Positions 3,936-57,622 of a stretch of DNA of 64,000 nt are shown here, one piece after another. The notes under the pieces were generated by a model. It did no database searches, had not been told where the DNA came from, and worked only from the letters and a program-made list of their open reading frames with translations. How positions within the stretch are numbered: position 1 is the stretch's first letter; the number at the start of each line of letters is the position of its first letter. Position numbers and translations under genes: made by a program. The DNA is from Ignavibacteriota bacterium (GTDB lineage Bacteria; Bacteroidota; Ignavibacteria; UBA10030; UBA6906): positions 209,913 to 273,912 of the forward strand of contig CAWJKM010000002.1 of NCBI GenBank assembly GCA_963843525.1, read 5' to 3'.

Positions 3936-4601
3936 ATGTTCATAGGTCATTATGCGGTGGCTCTGGCCGCGAAGAAGGCCACCCCGAAAACATCTCTCGG
4001 GCTGTTGTTCATTGCGGCACAATTCCTTGATTTGCTCTGGCCCCTCCTGGTCGTTTTCGGTGTGGAGCACGTCGGCATCGCACCGGCGACCGATCCATTC
4101 TTACGGCTGAATTTCCTCAGCTATCCTTTCTCCCACAGCTTGTTCGGCGCTTCCGTCTGGGCACTCGCGCTCGGAGGGCTCGTGGTTCTCTTCCGGAGGG
4201 ATATCGCTGAAGGGCTCATCATCGCAGGCTGTGTGATCAGCCATTGGATTCTGGACTTCTTTACGCATCGGCCGGACCTTCCCCTCACGTTTGAAGACCG
4301 GACAAAAGTGGGGCTGGGCCTATGGAATTCTGTTGCATGGACCATGCTGGTAGAGGTGGCGTTGTTTGCCGGCGGCGTGTACCTGTATCTTCAGGTCACA
4401 AAGGCGAAGGACAAGATCGGCGTGTACAGTTTCTGGGGCCTGATCGGCATTCTCTTCGTTATCTACGTCGCCAACATTTTCGGTCCCCCTCCCACCGATG
4501 CATCCCAGATCGGACTCCTTGCGAACGCAGCATGGGTATTTGTCGTGTGGGCGTTTTGGACGGACAGGCATCGCGCGGTAAAGGAGAAGAGTAGGAAGTA
4601 A
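3936..4601 (+). CDS. membrane-bound metal-dependent hydrolase-like protein (YdjM/DUF457-like)
   Basis: Multi-pass membrane protein starting MFIGHYAVALA with His-rich short loops (HWILDFFTHRPD). Confidence 0.4.
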   Translation: MFIGHYAVALAAKKATPKTSLGLLFIAAQFLDLLWPLLVVFGVEHVGIAPATDPFLRLNFLSYPFSHSLFGASVWALALGGLVVLFRRDIAEGLIIAGCVISHWILDFFTHRPDLPLTFEDRTKVGLGLWNSVAWTMLVEVALFAGGVYLYLQVTKAKDKIGVYSFWGLIGILFVIYVANIFGPPPTDASQIGLLANAAWVFVVWAFWTDRHRAVKEKSRK

Positions 4602-4674
4602 GAAGTAAGAAGTAAGAAGAAGGAAGTATGCGGTATGCAGTAGGCAGTAGGCAGAAAGAAGACAGACAGATGCG
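4591..4674 (+). repeat. degenerate heptanucleotide tandem repeat (TANGNAG-type, about 12 units) immediately 3' of the stop codon
   Basis: gtaagaa g|taagaag|taagaag|aaggaag|tatgcgg|tatgcag|taggcag|taggcag|aaagaag|acagaca|gatgcgg; 7-nt periodicity read by eye. Confidence 0.7.
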
Positions 4675-6433: not shown

Positions 6434-6483
6434 CGATGAAGTAAGCCGTATGCCGTAGGCAGTATGCAGATGGCGATAGCAGC
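6434..6483 (+). repeat. heptanucleotide tandem repeat (TANGNAG-type) in the divergent promoter region
   Basis: gatgaag|taagccg|tatgccg|taggcag|tatgcag|atggcga|tagcagc. Confidence 0.6.
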
Positions 6484-21921: not shown

Positions 21922-22011
21922 ACACCCCGCCAGGATGTTAGTTGAAAGGAAAGTCGAGGAAGCGGTGCCCGGTGACCCGTCGCAAGAAACATACAGCGCA
22001 TCTCTCCCGCC

Positions 22012-22100
22012 CACAGCTTTCTGCATACTGCCTACAGCTTTCTGCATACTGCCTACAGCTTACTGCTTACTTTCTTCTTCCTTCTTCATACTTCATACTC
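22012..22100 (-). repeat. heptanucleotide tandem repeat (TANGNAG-type on the minus strand) between the rhomboid and AKR genes
   Basis: Reverse complement: tatgaag|tatgaag|aaggaag|aagaaag|taagcag|taagctg|taggcag|tatgcag|aaagctg|taggcag|tatgcag|aaagctg. Confidence 0.7.
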
Positions 22101-23883: not shown

Positions 23884-23940
23884 TCCGTTTTCCCCCCCTC
23901 TCCCCCTCTCCCCCTCCCCTCATCTCCCTTCTCCCCCCCG
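23884..23940 (+). repeat. C-rich low-complexity tract with about 7-nt periodicity (ctctccc-type heptads)
   Basis: ccccccctctccccctctcccctcccctcatctcccttctccccccc. Confidence 0.5.
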
Positions 23941-24859: not shown

Positions 24860-24955
24860 TCAGTTGACAGTATACAGTAAACGGTATACAGTATACGGTT
24901 AATAGTAATCAGCGGACAGGGAGTACGAATTACGATATATGATGTATGAAGACGG
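24855..24955 (+). repeat. heptanucleotide tandem repeat (TA.ACAG-type) just 3' of the stop codon
   Basis: tagtcag|ttgacag|tatacag|taaacgg|tatacag|tatacgg|ttaatag|taatcag|cggacag|ggagtac|gaattac|gatatat|gatgtat. Confidence 0.6.
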
Positions 24956-24976: not shown

Positions 24977-25849
24977 TCACGCCGATTCTTTGACGACAGC
25001 GACAAGATCTTCCACCTTCCATTCGTTTCCCCGAAACACCTTCACGAGTTTTCCTTCCGGGTTGATGACCGCCGTCCGAAGATTATGGTCTATCAATCCT
25101 TCACTGGGTTCATAGGTGAGTCCAAAGCCATCCACAAACTTTCCGAGCGCGTTGCCCGCTGTATCAGGATCAGTTGCGAAGTCCCACACCGAAAAGTCCG
25201 CCCCGTAATTCATTCCGTATTGTCTGAGAACCGCCGGCCGGTCGAATGACGGGTCGAAGCTGATCGAAAGCAGATGCCAGCGTCCATTGAGTGCCTGGTC
25301 GGACTTCAGGATTCGCTGCAGGTCGGCGAACTGCTGACTCATCCTGATGCAGAAATCCGGCAGCGGACACCGGGTATAAATGAACGTCAGAACAAGGGTC
25401 TTCCCGCGGAAGGTGGAGACCTGTAACGGATTCCCGTCCTGGTTGACGAGTTTCAGGTCGGGAATTGTCTCACCGTCGCGATAGAGATGCTTGAATTCTA
25501 TCTCTTCGGGAGTCATCGCGTTCACGGTCTCGCCGCGTCGGAGAACCTGGATCGTCTCAAGCCAGCTTTCTGTTCGCGATACGGCCAGCGTGGCGCCGAT
25601 GGAATCGCCCACTGCGATCCTGTTCAGCAATGAAAGGTCTTTGATCTTAAACGGCATGGTCATTGCAGGCATGTAGTCGGGAATCGCCTCGTGCGACACC
25701 GTTACCCGGTGAGCAGTGGAATCGATGCCGACGACTTTGCCCCGGAGGGGGAACGTGACCATGTCGACGGGTTGTTTTTCCCTGGCGCAAGAGAAGAACA
25801 CACAGGAAATGAAAAGTGCGAGAGCGAGCGGGCGCATTGTGGGAATCAT
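24977..25849 (-). CDS. SCO1/SenC family copper chaperone-like lipoprotein
   Basis: Thioredoxin-like TFIYTRCPLPDFC and DHNLRTAVINPEG motifs, plus a Met-rich MTMPF segment. Start taken at the ATG that overlaps the barstar stop codon (ATGA). Confidence 0.75.
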   Translation of the reverse strand: MIPTMRPLALALFISCVFFSCAREKQPVDMVTFPLRGKVVGIDSTAHRVTVSHEAIPDYMPAMTMPFKIKDLSLLNRIAVGDSIGATLAVSRTESWLETIQVLRRGETVNAMTPEEIEFKHLYRDGETIPDLKLVNQDGNPLQVSTFRGKTLVLTFIYTRCPLPDFCIRMSQQFADLQRILKSDQALNGRWHLLSISFDPSFDRPAVLRQYGMNYGADFSVWDFATDPDTAGNALGKFVDGFGLTYEPSEGLIDHNLRTAVINPEGKLVKVFRGNEWKVEDLVAVVKESA

Positions 25850-26304
25850 CCAATTGTGAGGCCGGTGGCCCCGAGTCGTTGCCTTGTCGATGTCTCCCCT
25901 TCCGGCGTGCATTGAAAGATGACCCGTTCGAGCGGCGTCTCTTCGAGTTCATGGACCGTCTGGAGAATGGAGGCAAGAGTCCGGAGATCACCGTCATGAC
26001 GGGGGAGCAGATTGTCTGCATTTGTGATTACGAGAATCAGCTGCTCCGCGCCCAGCCATTCGAGATCGCCCAGACATTCTTCGAGGGCGTCCCAGTTGTC
26101 TCCGAAATAGTGGGGAAACTGAAGAGCGGCGGCGAATTCCTGAAACAGCCGTTCCCGCGTCTGGCATCGTTGTCCCCTGAGTATCCGCGCAGCCTTCCCG
26201 TTTCGTCCCTGTATTTCCGAAGTAAGATCGTCGATCTCACTTTCAGTGACGGCGAGAAGGTGGACCCACAGGGAGAGTCCTTCCAATTCAGTGTAAGTGA
26301 TCAC
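25846..26304 (-). CDS. barstar-family ribonuclease inhibitor
   Basis: ...LFQEFAAALQFPHYFGDNWDALEECL... is characteristic of barstar. Confidence 0.7.
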   Translation of the reverse strand: MITYTELEGLSLWVHLLAVTESEIDDLTSEIQGRNGKAARILRGQRCQTRERLFQEFAAALQFPHYFGDNWDALEECLGDLEWLGAEQLILVITNADNLLPRHDGDLRTLASILQTVHELEETPLERVIFQCTPEGETSTRQRLGATGLTIG

Positions 26305-26704
26305 GCGGTTTTGCCTCCGGCCTTCTCTTCAGATGAATGGGGGGAATCGGGCTCAATGTCCGGTAGTGATCAGCCGTATACCACCCCCGGTTTGTGTCGG
26401 TATCCACGACGATTCTCTCCGGACCCCGACTGACCCCTTTCTTCTTCGGGTGAACATCGTATTCCCGATACCGCCCCCGGGGAAGGCGGTGCTCACGGTT
26501 GTACCAGGGTGCTCCTCCGACATATCCTTCCGGCGCACGCCCGAAATCAACGACGTGGTTGTACACTTCCAGCACATGGCGGGGAACCGCTCCCGATTGT
26601 CGCTTCTCGAGCTTCATTTGTGGCGAAACCTTCGGCTGGGCGCTTCCAACCGTCAGCGACGCCGTGAGCAGAAGCGGGAGAGCAACGCGAAAAAAGAGTT
26701 TCAT
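26288..26704 (-). CDS. secreted ribonuclease of the barnase / RNase Sa (N1/T1-like microbial RNase) family
   Basis: Signal peptide MKLFFRVALPLLLTASLTVGSA; catalytic region YREYDV...GVSRGPERIVV...WYTADHYRTL. The internal ATG was used as start. Confidence 0.75.
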   Translation of the reverse strand: MKLFFRVALPLLLTASLTVGSAQPKVSPQMKLEKRQSGAVPRHVLEVYNHVVDFGRAPEGYVGGAPWYNREHRLPRGRYREYDVHPKKKGVSRGPERIVVDTDTNRGWYTADHYRTLSPIPPIHLKRRPEAKPRDHLH

Positions 26705-34122: not shown

Positions 34123-34470
34123 TTGGCATGGCTTGTCAAAACGCCGGCATTTCACGCAAGAGAGAGGGACCGCATGACAAAACAGCGGAAGGACCATGTT
34201 GTCGGAGTCGCGTGGTATCGTGCAGAACAATGGTCGGCCCTGAGAGAGTTCTGCGAGGATAGCGAAGAGATAGAATCCACACACGCAGCCTGGAAACGAG
34301 GAGCAGAAAAAGCGATGCGTGCTCTTCGCAGGGAAGGGCAGGCAGTGGAGCCGGTCGATTTCGATCTGGAGGAGTTCAAGGTGTGGTGCGCGGTAAACGG
34401 GACGAAACCGATCGGCGCGTCCCGGTCCGAGTTTACTGCACAGAAGCTGCGCGAAACCCGGGCGAAATGA
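34123..34470 (+). CDS. hypothetical protein
   Basis: ORF only; charged or helical sequence; the start may be the internal MTKQRK. Confidence 0.3.
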   Translation: MAWLVKTPAFHARERDRMTKQRKDHVVGVAWYRAEQWSALREFCEDSEEIESTHAAWKRGAEKAMRALRREGQAVEPVDFDLEEFKVWCAVNGTKPIGASRSEFTAQKLRETRAK

Positions 34471-34517
34471 CCCCACTCGGCATGGCCCCAGTTGGCTGAA
34501 GTGCAATAGGGAAAACT

Positions 34518-34770
34518 ATGGCAGGCTAGGCAACCAGAAATTCCCTCTGCGCAAGGCAAAAACATGGCAGGCTAGGCAACCAGAAATTCCCTCTGCGCAA
34601 AGCAAAATCATGGCAGCCTAGGCAACCAGAAATTCCCCCTGCGCAAGGCAAAAACATGGCAGCCTAGGCAACCAGAAATTCCCTCTGCGCAAAGCAAAAT
34701 CATGGCAGCCTAGGCAACCAGAAATTCCCTCTGCGCAAAGCAAAATCATGGCAGCCTAGGCAACCAGAGG
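34518..34770. repeat. 46-bp direct tandem repeat, 5.5 copies (atggcagSctaggcaaccagaaattccctctgcgcaaRgcaaaaWc)
   Basis: Units begin at 34518, 34564, 34610, 34656, 34702 and 34748 (partial); there are no spacers, so this is not a CRISPR array. Confidence 0.9.
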
Positions 34771-35218
34771 GAGGAAACTTGCCTCATTCTGTCGCGCTAC
34801 CCGCAAACGCGGTCTTCCGGGTAATCCTTGCGTGCCACCCTGTATTCAACGCCCCTGCGATCATTGGGAACCCAGCAAGATTCCGTAAGGATCGACCGGT
34901 CGGCGATCTCCCCGCTCTACCATTCTTCAAGAGCTCGCTTTGGATTTTGGGCTGAACACACCTTTCTCGGTCTTCTTGACATTACCCTCCACGCAGGTTA
35001 ATTTGAGATGCCAACGCCCCCTTTCCTGAACGAGGCGTCTTGACAAAACCCTGAAGGGAGAAAAATCTCTTCCGTCCGCCTCAGGAGGGGAGAGGTTTCT
35101 GCATTTTGGTGTCGGGTTACGAGCGCCCACCCCGGATCGTGCCGACGATCTGATCTTTCTCTCCCTCGCAGATGACCCCTGTGTGGCCGGTAATTACCAC
35201 TGACCAGAAAGCCTTCCC

Positions 35219-38071
35219 ATGACACCCCCGCGATCTCGCACAATCATTCTCGTCCAGTTCCTGCTCCTTGCCGCTGGTTGCGCCTCTGCGTTTGAGAAGC
35301 AATCCGACGGCGTCTTGTTTGAACTCACGAAACACAGACCAGCTGATCCACAATGGATGAAGGTCCAGGTGTGCACAGAAGACATCGTGCGGATCATCGC
35401 TTCGCCTGAGAAAGCATTCTCCAAACGTCCGAGTCTGATGGTCGAGAAAACGGCGAGGGAACCAGTGCCATGGACAGTGACCAGCCGCGACGGATTTGTC
35501 GATATCTCCACACCACGGATCACCGTGCGCGTTCAGCCGGAGAACGGGTCGGTGACGTTCTACGACTCGACCGGGCGGCTCCTGCTCCATGAAAAAGAGA
35601 GCGGCGGCAAGAGTATCAGCGCCGCAGATGTGATGGGAGAGAAGACGTTCCACATCCAGCAGCTGTTCGACTCCCCGCCGGATGAGGCGTTCTATGGTCT
35701 GGGGGGCAATCAAAACTCCATCATGAACTACAAGGGACATGACGTCGATCTGTACCAGCATAACATGGTTGAGGTGGTTCCCTTTCTCGTCTCGAACCGG
35801 AACTACGGAATCCTCTGGGACAACAACTCCCACATGAAACTTGGCGATATCAGGGAGTTTCAGCCCCTGTCCGTCCTGAGGCTCTTTGGGTCAGACAGTG
35901 TGGAAGGCGGCCTCACCGCTGAGTACTTCAGAGACTCCACGTTCAACTCTCTTTTTACTTCCCGCCGCGAATCAACGATCGACCATGAGTATACGGATGT
36001 CCACGATTCCCTCCCCGACGGATACCAGCAACATGTTGCCGCTGTTCGGTGGAGCGGCACAATCGCTGCCCGAACGACAGGGACGTATACGTTCAGGCTC
36101 TGTGGCAGCGGATACATCAAAATGTGGCTCGATGGCAAACTCGTTGCAGACTTCTGGCGTCAGAACTGGCTCCCGTGGACACATTTCCCTCGCCTCGCGA
36201 TGGAGGCAGGAAAAGCCTGCACCATCAAAATCGAGTGGATCCCTACCGGCGGTGCCATCAGCGTGAACTGCCTCGGCCCGGCAGACGACCTCTACAAGAA
36301 CAGTCTTTCCCTCTACTCGGAAGTGGCCGATCAGATCGACTACTATTTTGTCAGAGGAGACAACCTCGATCAGGTCATTCATGGGTACCGGCAGCTTACC
36401 GGCAAGGCACCAATGATGCCCCAATGGGCATTGGGTCTATGGCAGTCGCGCGAGCATTACGCATCGCAGGATGAAATTCTCTCTGTTGTCGGCGAATTCC
36501 GGAAGCGCAGCATCCCTCTCGATAACATTGTCCAGGACTGGTTCTATTGGAAAGAGGACAAATGGGGTGACCATGAGTTTGATCCGACACGGTATCCGGA
36601 CCCTGCAGCGATGATCCGAACGCTCCACGACGATCTGCACACTCACATCATGATTTCCGTCTGGGCGAAGTTCTATGTCGGGACCAGAAACTTCGAAGAG
36701 TTCCGGAAGAACGGGTGGCTGTACATGCGGAACGTCGAGAAGGGGCAGCGCGATTGGGTCGGCCCCGGGTATGTCTCGACGTTTTACGATCCGTATTCGG
36801 AGGGCGCGCGCGATCTTTTTTGGAAACAGGTGAACGAGAAGCTGTTCAGCAAAGGAATCGATGCATGGTGGTTGGATTGTACAGAACCCGACATTCAATC
36901 CAATCTCTCCCGGGAGGAGACAATCCTTCGCCAGGGCCCGACCGCTCTGGGATCGGCATCGCGCTACCTGAATTCCTTTTCCCTCATGCAGACGCGTGCG
37001 GTCTACGAAGGTCAACGCACGGTCAACCCGAATCAACGCGTGTTCATCCTGACCCGGTCGGCATTTGCCGGAACGCAACGCTATGCAGCGGCGACGTGGA
37101 GCGGCGACATCGCGGCCCGATGGTACGACATGAAGGCGCAAATTTCGTCAGGCTTGAATTTCACGCTCGCGGGTATTCCGTACTGGACCATGGACATCGG
37201 CGGGTTTGCTGTCGAAGCGCGGTATGAGCATCCGAACGCAGCAGACCTCGACGAATGGCGCGAACTGAACACGCGCTGGTTCCAATTCGGATCGTTCTGC
37301 CCCCTCTTCCGGGTGCACGGACAGTTTCCCTATCGCGAGATGTTCAATGTAGCCCCGGAAAACCACCCTGCATACCAGGCAATGCTTGCGTACGACCGGT
37401 TGCGATACCGGCTGATGCCGTATCTCTACTCCCTGGCGGGCATGGTCACGCGGAACGACTACACCATCATGCGCGCGCTCGTCATGGATTTCGGGAAGGA
37501 TACAAACGTCCTGGGCATCGGCGATCAGTTCATGTTCGGTCCCGCATTGCTTGTGAACCCGGTGACCGAATACAAAGCAAGAAGCCGGTCCGTCTATCTT
37601 CCCGGGACCGGCTGGTACGAGCTCCGGACGGGGAAACACATCGCCGGCGGACAGTCCATCACGGCCGAAGCTCCGTATTCCGATATCCCGCTCTTTGTGA
37701 AAGAGGGATCGATTATTCCATGCGGACCCGACATCCAGTACACGGCGCAAAAACCTGCCGACCCGATCCGGCTGTTCATCTACACCGGAGGCGACGGCGC
37801 ATTCACCCTCTATGAAGACGAAGGGGTGAATTACAACTACGAGAAGGGGTTGTTCTCGACGATTCCGCTCACGTACAGTGAGAAGAACCACATGCTGACG
37901 ATCGGGACGAGACAGGGGGAATTCCCGGGAATGCTTCGGAAAAGATCCTTCGATATCGTCTGGATTAGCGGGAGCAGGCCGTCCGGACTTGACTTCGCGT
38001 CCGCTCCGGATGCTACGATTGCCTATGATGGGACGCCGCAGTCTGTAGAAATGAAGTTCAAGTCGAGATAG
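35219..38071 (+). CDS. GH31 family glycoside hydrolase (alpha-glucosidase/alpha-xylosidase-like) with a PA14 insertion
   Basis: Signal peptide; PA14-like GTYTFRLCGSGYIKMWLDGKLV; GH31 catalytic region GIDAWWLDCTEPD; conserved GH31 C-terminal beta-sandwich. Confidence 0.85.
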   Translation: MTPPRSRTIILVQFLLLAAGCASAFEKQSDGVLFELTKHRPADPQWMKVQVCTEDIVRIIASPEKAFSKRPSLMVEKTAREPVPWTVTSRDGFVDISTPRITVRVQPENGSVTFYDSTGRLLLHEKESGGKSISAADVMGEKTFHIQQLFDSPPDEAFYGLGGNQNSIMNYKGHDVDLYQHNMVEVVPFLVSNRNYGILWDNNSHMKLGDIREFQPLSVLRLFGSDSVEGGLTAEYFRDSTFNSLFTSRRESTIDHEYTDVHDSLPDGYQQHVAAVRWSGTIAARTTGTYTFRLCGSGYIKMWLDGKLVADFWRQNWLPWTHFPRLAMEAGKACTIKIEWIPTGGAISVNCLGPADDLYKNSLSLYSEVADQIDYYFVRGDNLDQVIHGYRQLTGKAPMMPQWALGLWQSREHYASQDEILSVVGEFRKRSIPLDNIVQDWFYWKEDKWGDHEFDPTRYPDPAAMIRTLHDDLHTHIMISVWAKFYVGTRNFEEFRKNGWLYMRNVEKGQRDWVGPGYVSTFYDPYSEGARDLFWKQVNEKLFSKGIDAWWLDCTEPDIQSNLSREETILRQGPTALGSASRYLNSFSLMQTRAVYEGQRTVNPNQRVFILTRSAFAGTQRYAAATWSGDIAARWYDMKAQISSGLNFTLAGIPYWTMDIGGFAVEARYEHPNAADLDEWRELNTRWFQFGSFCPLFRVHGQFPYREMFNVAPENHPAYQAMLAYDRLRYRLMPYLYSLAGMVTRNDYTIMRALVMDFGKDTNVLGIGDQFMFGPALLVNPVTEYKARSRSVYLPGTGWYELRTGKHIAGGQSITAEAPYSDIPLFVKEGSIIPCGPDIQYTAQKPADPIRLFIYTGGDGAFTLYEDEGVNYNYEKGLFSTIPLTYSEKNHMLTIGTRQGEFPGMLRKRSFDIVWISGSRPSGLDFASAPDATIAYDGTPQSVEMKFKSR

Positions 38072-42460: not shown

Positions 42461-42735
42461 ACGAGTGGAGAAACCTTGTCATGGGCGGAACGTGCGTCGG
42501 CATTTCGCAGGGTTGACCAGGCGACGTTCTTTCGACGGTATCAATATATATACCGGATTGTACACTTTCATGGAAAATCACCGGGTCGATTATGTGTAAA
42601 TTACACCAGAGAAGGAGGGACAGTCATCTCTGGAACACCGACCCGTGTCTCCTTTATCACGCGAAACTACATTAACCCTTTCAGTTTGTGAAAGGGGATT
42701 GCCTCGAACGATATAACATATGTGAGGAATAGAAG

Positions 42736-51403: not shown

Positions 51404-51495
51404 GCTCTCTCCCTTTCCCCCCGTCCCCAGTCCCCAAGTCTCCCAGTCCCCAAGTCCCCAAGTCTCCCACTCTCCCCCTCAGTCCCTCGCCCTTC
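51404..51495. repeat. C-rich 7-8-nt periodic repeat (gtcccca / agtctccca units) at the helicase-N / methyltransferase junction
   Basis: gtcccca gtcccca agtctccca gtcccca agtcccca agtctccca ... Confidence 0.6.
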
Positions 51496-54556: not shown

Positions 54557-55714
54557 ATGACTCTCTTCATCCATCTTGATCTCGATTGCTTCTTCGCCGC
54601 CGTCGAGACCGTCCTGCATCCCGAACTTCGCGGTGTTCCGCTCTGTGTCGGGGGGCAGCGGGGAGGACGGGGGATTGTGACCTGTCCGAATTACGAGGCG
54701 CGCGCGTATGGTGTCCGGACGGCCATGTCGGTGCGTGCGGCGGAACAGCTCCTGCCGCGGGGCGCCGTGTTCCTCCGGGGGAACCATCACCTGTATGGTG
54801 AATATTCACGGCGTGTCATGACGGTTCTGGAATCGTTTACGCCCGAAGTGCGACAACGGAGCATCGATGAAGCGCTGATGGAAGTCGGGGGATGCCTTCA
54901 CTTCTGGGGCCACGATCCGGCCCGCATGGGGCAGGCGATCAAGGACCGGGTCCGTACGGAAACGGGCCTGACGATCTCCGCCGGTGTTGCGCCCAACCCC
55001 CTGTGCGCGAAGATCGCAGCCGGATGGCGTAAACCCGACGGTCTCGTGGTGATCCCTCATGGCGAAGTACAGGAATTCCTTGCGCCGTTGCCGGTGGACG
55101 TTGTGCCCGGAATCGGCAAAAAGACCGCGCCGCGTCTTGCCATGCACGGCATCCGGACAGTGAGTGATCTGATTGCCCGGCGGCCGCCCCGCGAGAGCTG
55201 GCTCGGTTCGCTGCTCCGGGGATTGCTTGATGAAACGGGAAGTTCAGGACGGCACGACGCTGATGCTGTTGAGCACTCGATCTCGCGCGACAGGACATTC
55301 GGTCAGGATACTGCCGACCGGGAACAGATCGAATCGACGCTCTTCCTGCTGACCGAGCGTTGCTGCAAAACCCTCCGGGTCGAGGGGCTCGCGGCATCGA
55401 CGGTGACCCTGAAGGTACGTTTCGCGGATTTCACCACCGTGCAGAAGCAGGAAACGCTGCCCGCGGCGGTGGTGAACGAAGAGCAGATCTTCGCGGCCGT
55501 CCTGCTGCTGCTGGGCGACCTTCTTCCGCCCTGGCGGTTTGTGCGTCTTGTCGGGGTGAAGGTGTCCCATCTTTCCCCGCTGGAAGGACAGCAACTCACA
55601 CTCGATGCCGGGACGTCGGAACGACTGCATGAGCTGCACCGCCGGGTGGATGCGCTGCAGGAACGGTTTGGAGAAGCGAGCGTGCGGTGGGGAAGAGGGG
55701 TGGGGACATTTTAA
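54557..55714 (+). CDS. dinB: DNA polymerase IV (Y-family)
   Basis: Y-family motifs (HLDLDCFFAAVE, SIDEA...) and length about 385 aa. Start taken at MTLFIHLD; the track ORF begins at 54461. Confidence 0.85.
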   Translation: MTLFIHLDLDCFFAAVETVLHPELRGVPLCVGGQRGGRGIVTCPNYEARAYGVRTAMSVRAAEQLLPRGAVFLRGNHHLYGEYSRRVMTVLESFTPEVRQRSIDEALMEVGGCLHFWGHDPARMGQAIKDRVRTETGLTISAGVAPNPLCAKIAAGWRKPDGLVVIPHGEVQEFLAPLPVDVVPGIGKKTAPRLAMHGIRTVSDLIARRPPRESWLGSLLRGLLDETGSSGRHDADAVEHSISRDRTFGQDTADREQIESTLFLLTERCCKTLRVEGLAASTVTLKVRFADFTTVQKQETLPAAVVNEEQIFAAVLLLLGDLLPPWRFVRLVGVKVSHLSPLEGQQLTLDAGTSERLHELHRRVDALQERFGEASVRWGRGVGTF

Positions 55715-55752
55715 ATTTTAGATTTTAGAATTTAGATTTTAGATTTTAGACT
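55710..55752 (+). repeat. TTTAGAT heptanucleotide tandem repeat (about 6 copies) immediately after the dinB stop
   Basis: tttaaat|tttagat|tttagaa|tttagat|tttagat|tttagac. Confidence 0.8.
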
Positions 55753-57002: not shown

Positions 57003-57365
57003 CTGTAGGTCGGGTCGCTGACCCGACCAATTCAGACGGGAGACACTGCATGGCCGGCGGGACGGGTCTGGCGACCCGTCCTACAAATGGACACTCTGTA
57101 GGTCGGGTCGCTGACCCGACCAATTCAGACGGGAGACACTGCGTAGCCGGCGGGACGGGTCTGGCGACCCGTCCTACAAATGGGCACTCTGTAGGTCGGG
57201 TCGCTGACCCGACCATCTCAGACGGGAGACACTGCGTAGCCGGCGGGACGGGTCTGGCGACCCGTCCTACAAATGGACACTCTGTAGGTCGGGTCGCTGA
57301 CCCGACCATCTCAGACGGGAGACACTGCGTAGCCGGCGGGACGGGTCTGGCGACCCGTCCTACAG
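57003..57365. repeat. 93-bp tandem repeat, about 3.9 copies, each unit carrying two perfect 9-bp-stem hairpins (REP/BIME-like)
   Basis: Units begin at 57003, 57096, 57189 and 57283. Hairpins are GGTCGGGTCgctGACCCGACC and GGACGGGTCtggcGACCCGTCC. The array sits directly 5' of a RAYT-like transposase remnant. Confidence 0.85.
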
Positions 57366-57389
57366 ATCTTCGTACGTACCCATTGACAA

Positions 57390-57622
57390 ACATACTTTCT
57401 TCGTTCAAGAAGTACACTGCTCGACGAGCAAATAAGCTGCTCAGCCGTCAGGGAGCATTCTGGCAAGATGAATCATACGACCATCTCATCCGCGCCGGGG
57501 AAGAGCTTGAACGGACGATGTGGTACGTAGTGAACAATCCCGTGAAAGCGAAACTCGCAAAGGAATGGCAGGACTGGGAATACACGTACGTGAAGCCAGA
57601 CCTTCTGAATTTCGCTTTTTGA
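57390..57622 (+). pseudogene. truncated REP-associated tyrosine transposase (RAYT, IS200-like Y1 transposase): C-terminal ~80 aa only
   Basis: ...FKKYTARRANKLLSRQGAFWQDESYDHLIRAGEELERTMWYVVNNPVKAKLAKEWQDWEYTYV matches the RAYT C-terminus (Y..NPV catalytic Tyr region). The HUH N-terminal half is absent, and the upstream part of the track ORF (57050-57389) is just a translation of the REP array. Confidence 0.65.

Follow-up and report, generated by a model that had tools for sequence, protein, structure and literature searches.

The array of 46-bp direct repeats found upstream of a GH31 gene in the analysed window (the whole stretch of 64,000 nucleotides, to which coordinates refer unless another sequence is named) is most likely an ordinary bacterial minisatellite and not a regulatory device. 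More specifically, we hold it probable, though well short of certain, that it is a lineage-private intergenic minisatellite (VNTR), the copy number of which changes by slippage or unequal exchange. Like minisatellites and VNTRs in general, it is made of a head-to-tail unit in the 10-100-bp range without spacers, and it is intergenic and non-coding. A minisatellite was among the options offered by the initial annotation and is the one that we favour, since the locus was found in a single lineage, its copies or structure vary between near-identical assemblies, and no other copies were detected.

Structure of the array and anatomy of its unit

Tandem Repeats Finder delimited the array at 34512-34768, with a period of 46, 5.6 copies, 95% matches, 0% indels and a score of 449. 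The limits given by the initial annotation, 34518-34770, differ from these by a few bases. Five full units, with no strand assigned, start at 34512, 34558, 34604, 34650 and 34696, and a terminal partial unit of 27 bp occupies 34742-34768. The start-to-start spacing of the units was exactly 46 in a repeat search, and a 38-nt core pattern allowing up to 3 mismatches gave five matches, all of them in the array, versus none in 100 shuffles. The initial description of a tandem 46-bp direct repeat without spacers was thus confirmed by Tandem Repeats Finder, the exact spacings and the shuffle test. A CRISPR array was ruled out, as the units abut without unique spacers. Among the full units, five columns differ (positions 5, 6, 14, 35 and 44, in the register from 34512), and not three as previously counted. 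The GC content of the array is 51%. Since 46 is not divisible by 3 and a TAG in each unit shuts all frames within three units, the array is non-coding, and a coding repeat could be discarded.

The mini-ORF ATG GCA GGC TAG, which had been attributed to every unit, is present in units 1-2, while units 3-6 read ATG GCA GCC TAG. It belongs to the core palindrome described below, and no Shine-Dalgarno sequence was found for it. By our estimate, chance alone would yield roughly 0.1 such combinations of an ATG and a stop within three codons for each unit and strand.

The junctions between units are of two linked types, J1 (...AAGGC/AAAAAC...) and J2 (...AAAGC/AAAATC...), which follow one another in the order J1 J2 J1 J2 J2. 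This order indicates a partial 92-bp higher order in the array and suggests that the latter probably grew by a 92-bp duplication and then by a 46-bp one.

Each unit contains a 19-bp core, TGGCAGSCTAGGCAACCAG, of which the first copy is at 34519-34537 and the others start at 34565, 34611, 34657, 34703 and 34749. In every unit, this core (TGGCWGSCTAGGCAACCAG; TGGCAGCCTAGGCAACCA; TGGCAGCCTAGGCAACCAG) holds an 18-bp palindrome, imperfect and with CCTAGG in its middle. The unit has another dyad centre, TGCGCA, at 34548-34553 and again at 34594, 34640, 34686 and 34732; neither the core nor this second centre was assigned a strand. The two centres are separated by 23 bp, which is exactly half the period. 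When the 46-bp unit is read as a cycle, 15 of its 23 position pairs are Watson-Crick symmetric around the two dyad centres, a value reached by 1 of 5000 shuffles when the maximum over all centres was taken (P about 2e-4). The quasi-palindromic symmetry of the unit is therefore unexpected for random DNA. Of the eight mismatched pairs, four consist of A.C on the plus strand, which read as G.U on the minus strand. CAGAGGGA (34765-34772), located at the 3' edge of the array, is the inverted complement of TCCCTCTG, which is present in every full unit, and the sequence to the right of the array resembles the first half of the spacer in inverted and diverged form.

As a result of the dyad symmetry of the unit, the whole array folds as one long imperfect hairpin, with z-scores of -2.5 (plus strand) and -5.2 (minus strand) when folded as RNA, and of -2.7 and -4.4, respectively, when folded as DNA. 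Single 46-bp units folded no more strongly than shuffles (z +0.2 to +1.3). The difference between the strands follows from the A+C-rich composition of the plus strand (A16 C14 G9 T7 per unit) and was not taken as evidence for an RNA. Searches of Rfam identified no family at gathering score. In E-value mode, they returned only MIR2670, a plant miRNA hairpin, on the minus strand, with 28.7 bits versus a gathering score of 117; this match was dismissed as spurious and reflects the hairpin. The earlier proposal of a riboregulator did not hold up, since no Rfam family was recognised and single units fold like shuffles.

We found neither a sigma-70-type promoter nor a terminator-like site within the array, and no Bacteroidetes-type TAnnTTTG on the plus strand of the intergenic region. 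Near-matches to the latter on the minus strand of this region all carry a mismatch, and none is directed at a gene. The sigma-54 consensus has GG and GC 12 nt apart, start to start. In TGGCAGCCTAGGCAA this distance is 10 nt, so that the TGGCA...GCAA arrangement of the unit, as read from the sequence, has a spacing unfit for sigma-54, and this candidate was rejected. The view of the array as a tandem promoter was abandoned on the strength of these three results.

Genomic context and other repeats of the window

The array lies, as initially described, between a small gene (34174-34470, plus strand) and the GH31 gene (35219-38071, plus strand). The small gene encodes a protein of 98 aa (counted from its ATG), and its stop codon precedes the array by 41 bp. 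The protein matches phrog_4753, the function of which is not known, with an E-value of 3.5e-14. It had no match in PDB, Pfam, NCBIfam or PADLOC, no DNA-binding signature or domain was recognised in it, and its AlphaFold model (pLDDT 58) is too poor for use. Homologues of the gene are very scarce, a search of 5.8 billion proteins having yielded only two clusters. Weak relatives are present in Burkholderia phage Bcep176 (gp17, encoded in its early region) and on a Bosea megaplasmid, where the ORF is unannotated. A homologue sharing 65% identity with it (L007) shows no array in the following 106 bp. The 98-aa gene may be a mobile gene of the 'moron' type. On the other side of the array, a TTG-initiated ORF of 58 aa (34779-34955) starts 10 bp past its end and has a Shine-Dalgarno-like GGGAGG at 34770-34775; this ORF has no family match and is not called in the related assembly.

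The 450 bp that separate the array from the GH31 gene (34769-35218) are 100% identical in L003 (GCA_049587695.1, contig JBAVEK010000094.1), a MAG with the gene order of the window. This segment shows no similarity to the regions upstream of GH31 orthologues and contains no remnant of UxuA or LacI. More broadly, tblastn detected in the window no remnants of the UxuA, LacI, MFS and TBDR genes that flank GH31 in relatives. A terminator-like hairpin followed by a T-run is present at 35133-35152 on the plus strand, 66 bp before the GH31 start codon. It is a weak signal, one site having been found versus 1.5 expected in shuffles; if functional, the hairpin would separate GH31 from read-through coming from the array.

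The GH31 protein is alpha-xylosidase-like and carries a PA14 insert (Pfam PF01055, E 2.7e-96). Its N-terminus, MTPPRSRTIILVQFLLLAAGC, looks like a lipoprotein signal peptide. A public protein identical to it, P0001 (904 aa), begins 46 codons past 35219 (35219-35356) and is recorded on a contig of 525,531 bp. The 950-aa form, as found in the sister MAG, opens with a lipoprotein-type signal peptide (…LLLAAGC), and the shorter public start is probably a mis-call. Look-ups with the 950-aa and the 904-aa forms of the window's own protein retrieved no exact record. The GH31 gene is followed by genes for a GH2 enzyme, an alpha-amylase (minus strand), a DUF5597/GH35-like protein, a second GH31 and a GH9, and the term 'CAZyme island' used in the initial annotation is therefore correct.

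Upstream genes encode a DeoC-like aldolase, a 69-aa ORF, an SPFH/Band-7 protein and a 641-aa protein without known function. Elsewhere, the window carries chromosomal housekeeping genes (ProRS, M16 and S41 peptidases, DinB, PolB and UvrD). There is no regulator, Rep or Par gene beside the array, and no ParA, ParB, ParM or ParR domain was detected in the scanned ORFs of the window or in the gene table of L003. A barstar/barnase-type ribonuclease pair (PF01337, PF00545) is found at about 25846-26704 (766-1624 in L003), where it adjoins an ABC-2 transporter, 8 kb upstream of the array. Relatives have a LacI-family regulator between the alpha-amylase and DUF5597 genes (L001 17223-18326) and another one upstream of GH31. 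Both were missing from the window, including from 42461-42735, when searched with tblastn.

The window contains several other repeats. A 93-bp unit is repeated 3.9 times in tandem at 57003-57364, with 97% matches. It comprises two perfect GC-rich hairpins in inverted orientation with GTAG heads, GTAGGTCGGGTCGCTGACCCGACC and, on the other strand, GTAGGACGGGTCGCCAGACCCGTCC, which identifies the array as a cluster of REP doublets (REPIN-like). An ORF at 57050-57622 shows, in residues 112-178 (57380-57622), only the C-terminal half of NCBIfam NF047646, the REP-associated tyrosine transposase (E 2e-14). Since only this half is present and lies directly 3' of the array, the RAYT gene appears to be truncated or overrun by its own REP array. 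The REPs of the 93-bp array were found nowhere else in the window.

Short intergenic arrays with units of 7-8 bp are present at 4590-4661, 6436-6479, 22009-22099, 24867-24899, 23894-23937, 51408-51480 and 55708-55750. A single heptamer family (AGTAAGM, AGTATGC, GCAGTAT and their complements) accounts for several of them, and the array at 6439-6479 shows 83% complementarity to that at 22032-22072. Other units are CCCCAGTC-like, CCCCCTCT and ATTTTAG. The heptamer arrays are similar to the STRR heptamers known from cyanobacteria, and their presence in a Bacteroidota MAG appears to be uncommon.

Occurrence of the unit and variation among assemblies

No second locus was found for the unit, the half-unit or the core in the 64-kb window or in any of the fetched loci. 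The exact 26-mer was absent from the contigs of species-representative genomes and from JGI metagenome contigs. A search of genome and metagenome contigs with a periodic two-core pattern retrieved a Streptomyces 16-bp repeat and seven metagenome arrays, all of which were set aside as unrelated arrays sharing only a 12-mer with the core. The Streptomyces repeat, CTAGGCAACCAGACGG x 4 at 2842-2901 of L004 (Streptomyces sp. NPDC005963), contains the 12-mer CTAGGCAACCAG. We regard this match to the core as one of chance, as periodic patterns would catch any tandem array with that word. Viral contigs gave no match to the periodic core pattern, and the whole intergenic region gave none against plasmids and phages by blastn.

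The GH31 orthologues with 76-80% amino acid identity (L001, L002, L019 and L020) have a UxuA or xylose-isomerase-like gene upstream. In these four loci the 46-mer is absent, the perfect palindrome TGGTTGCCTAGGCAACCA has no match even when 4 mismatches are allowed, and nothing is similar to window 34471-35218. Since GH31 orthologues are thus preceded by other genes, without array or core, the array is not a conserved operator of the operon. When searched for in these 64 kb of the genome and in relatives, as the initial annotation had envisaged, the 46-mer turned up nowhere else, be it in the window, the fetched loci or the collections. As far as the collections reach, this is the outcome (a unit without further occurrences) that the annotation had named as speaking against its proposals. 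The array therefore appears to be private to one locus of one species-level lineage of uncultured Bacteroidota.

The comparison with L003 revealed a difference in copy number. The two sequences differ by 22 SNPs in 22,734 flanking bases (99.9% identity), with no indel outside the array, and their GH31 proteins are identical at 948 of 950 positions. The array of L003 has 2.6 copies versus 5.6 in the window, an exact difference of 138 bp, or three units. It consists of exactly units 1 and 2 and the terminal partial unit, without novel junction. A single slippage or unequal-exchange event between identical cores would explain this difference. A de Bruijn collapse would also explain the 2.6 copies, since the junction of units 2 and 3 equals that of units 5 and 6 over >55 nt. 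Copy number seems, from these sequences, to differ between near-identical genomes, with the reservation that L003, which is probably a short-read assembly, may be collapsed at this point. The L003 contig ends at about window 57084, i.e. inside the 93-bp array, as deduced by coordinate arithmetic.

Short-read contigs from other samples (L005, L006 and L017) end just before or inside the 46-bp array; L005 stops 28 bp past the stop codon of the 98-aa gene. The Logan contig of ERR12037368 apparently ends at the array as well, the 98-aa gene being the last gene listed. Such contig breaks are usual for a tandem repeat longer than the k-mer of the assembler. A search with the GH31 N-terminus for the right-side contigs of other strains retrieved nothing above 65% identity.

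L006, which is 97.5% identical to the window over 806 bp, has a different structure. It reads TGGCAGGCTAGGCAACCAG - AAAATGAGGAAATTCG - TGGCTGCCTAGGCAACCAG - GG before the contig ends. Instead of the 46-bp unit, it has two copies of the 19-bp core, 35 bp apart and separated by another spacer, of 16 nt. The second core, TGGCTGCCTAGGCAACCA, is 1 mismatch away from a perfect palindrome. The core is the only part of the unit that is also kept in L006, and would represent the older, shared part of the locus. Whatever the true state of L003, the different structure of L006 indicates that the locus is structurally polymorphic within the species. As to the variation among strains that the initial annotation had proposed to look for, the copy numbers of 5.6 and 2.6 are open to collapse in L003, while the structure of L006 is truly different.

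Interpretation and comparison with known repeat systems

The formation of the minisatellite may be envisaged as follows. A segment of about 46 bp with a pre-existing palindromic motif of 18-19 bp would have been duplicated head to tail, with one step of 92 bp and one of 46 bp as a minimum. The number of copies would then shift by slipped-strand mispairing or unequal exchange between near-identical units, a mechanism that we infer. The dyad symmetry of the unit would allow displaced strands to fold back, which should favour slippage. We also infer that, in all likelihood, the array serves no function that depends on its sequence; it would mainly add length to the non-coding stretch that separates the GH31-GH2 operon from the 98-aa gene. 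There are many other intergenic tandem arrays in the same 64-kb window and almost none in the L001 and L002 loci, which suggests that this genome readily tolerates or generates tandem arrays. The locus would be a good marker for strain typing in an uncultured Bacteroidota species, though its practical value is small. It also illustrates how tandem repeats break or collapse short-read metagenome assemblies, the only contig that crosses it being three units shorter.

We considered the possibility that the array has a function, since the symmetry of its unit and the conservation of the core in L006 might both stem from a structured transcript or from a site to which a protein binds. If proteins were bound, the six 18-bp palindromes (TGGCAGCCTAGGCAACCA) at 46-bp spacing would be sites for a dimeric protein, and the array would act as an operator or decoy for GH31-GH2 or as a sopC-like centromere. 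There is indeed a palindrome in each unit, with a second dyad centre 23 bp off; the core is kept twice in L006 despite the changed spacer, the second copy being a nearly perfect palindrome; and the layout, with an array starting 41 bp after a small gene, is like that of sopC. Yet no ParA/ParB-type, Rep or transcription-factor gene adjoins the array, and the 98-aa neighbour shows no DNA-binding signature and has no usable model (pLDDT 58). Furthermore, the core recurs neither in the other CAZyme intergenic regions of the window nor upstream of the orthologous operons, and the context is chromosomal, with ProRS, DinB, PolB and UvrD on a contig recorded at 525 kb. Finally, a spacing of 46 bp corresponds to 4.4 helical turns, so that successive sites would face different sides of the helix. 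Taken together, these points make a binding-site array improbable in our estimate. A bolder variant, to which we give somewhat less credence still, is that a six-site palindrome array was recruited with the rare phage-family 98-aa gene and serves as a chromosomal sopC-like centromere, a silencer or a titration array. If this were true, its copy number would tune the xyloside-utilisation operon, or the array would mark a boundary of acquired DNA. If the core does bind a protein, the locus would be a chromosomal sopC-like tandem operator beside a polysaccharide-utilisation operon; nothing that we found requires such an interpretation.

Three other readings each appear less likely than an array of binding sites. 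The copy number might alter the distance between GH31-GH2 and a promoter, or the read-through into them, resulting in heritable, strain-variable expression of xyloside-degrading genes; the promoter would be located within the array or belong to the 98-aa gene. The array does precede the GH31-GH2 operon on the same strand, its copies apparently vary between 99.9%-identical genomes, and there are other bacteria in which transcription is known to be modulated by intergenic tandem repeats (e.g. PMC5179023). We nevertheless regard such a contingency spacer as unlikely, since the array ends 450 bp before the start codon with a terminator-like hairpin in between, no promoter consensus is found in or beside it, units of 46 bp far exceed classical phase-variation repeats, and the difference in copy number may be an assembly artefact.

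The array might also be a degenerate REP/BIME-like cluster, i.e. alternating inverted half-units of about 23 bp once mobilised by a RAYT. The quasi-palindromic unit indeed allows the array to be read as alternating inverted half-units, as in BIME-2, and the RAYT remnant and the 93-bp REP-doublet array indicate that the genome has hosted such elements. The 46-bp unit is however unlike the REP of the 93-bp array, it has no GTAG-type head, no stable hairpin and no dispersed copy in the 64 kb or in the collections, and it is located 22 kb from the RAYT remnant, all of which renders this origin very unlikely. No more credible is a structured RNA transcribed from the minus strand. This antisense transcript would form a long imperfect hairpin of about 120 bp, open to processing by RNase III or to action on the mRNA of the 98-aa gene. 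The stronger fold of the whole array on the minus strand (z -5.2 versus -2.5), the conversion of 4 of the 8 symmetry mismatches to G.U on that strand and the weak Rfam match to a miRNA precursor are in line with it. Against it, the asymmetry is expected from the A+C-rich plus strand, the minus strand shows neither an evident gene nor an evident promoter, any tandem quasi-palindromic array folds in this manner, and the 2.6-copy and L006 variants would lose the structure.

The minisatellite can be compared with several known systems. Iterons are repeats of about 17-22 bp at about 22-bp spacing, found beside a rep gene with an AT-rich region and DnaA boxes. The array resembles them as a series of direct repeats that could bind a protein, but it has no rep gene, AT-rich region or DnaA boxes. 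The suggestion of an iteron-like array made in the initial annotation was rejected on account of the missing rep gene, the chromosomal context, the period of 46 bp and the GC content.

Another system is sopC of plasmid F, in which a 43-bp repeat occurs 12 times in tandem. Each of these copies contains an inverted repeat to which SopB binds, and sopC sits just downstream of the gene for this binding protein. The two arrays have in common a similar unit length (43 versus 46 bp), a tandem arrangement without spacers, an inverted repeat per unit and a position directly downstream of a gene. They differ in that ours has no ParA/SopA-type ATPase or ParB/SopB-type protein nearby and is chromosomal rather than on a plasmid. 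A partition centromere was rejected for want of partner genes in the vicinity, although the units are in tandem and contain an inverted repeat.

The BIME-2 of enterobacteria are extragenic clusters of palindromic units in alternating orientation and with variable copy number. REPs are characterised by a GTAG-type head, a stable stem-loop, tens to hundreds of dispersed copies and an association with a RAYT. The 46-bp array resembles them, and the 93-bp array of REP doublets, as an extragenic palindromic cluster with alternating orientation and apparently variable copies. None of the four REP traits is found in the 46-bp unit, and the lack of a GTAG head, of a stable single-unit hairpin and of dispersed copies in the 64 kb and the collections speaks against its membership of this class.

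MIRUs form a family that is dispersed over about 40 loci per genome, whereas the 46-bp unit was found at one locus; its quasi-palindromic nature was counted as another difference. Some MIRUs carry small ORFs. An interspersed unit of the MIRU type was rejected, no second locus having been found in the 64-kb window or the fetched loci; as the unit is not interspersed, the array is a VNTR but does not represent a MIRU-like family. Its organisation is nonetheless like that of the MIRU-VNTR loci of Mycobacterium tuberculosis, where units of tens of bp are arranged head to tail, for the most part in intergenic positions between co-oriented genes (PMC3635867). The likeness would extend to copies that vary among close strains and that short reads fail to span (PMC3635867), the variation resting here on one short-read assembly. 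Intergenic bacterial minisatellites with copy-number variation, which short reads fail to span, are an established class, as exemplified by the MIRU loci (PMC3635867).
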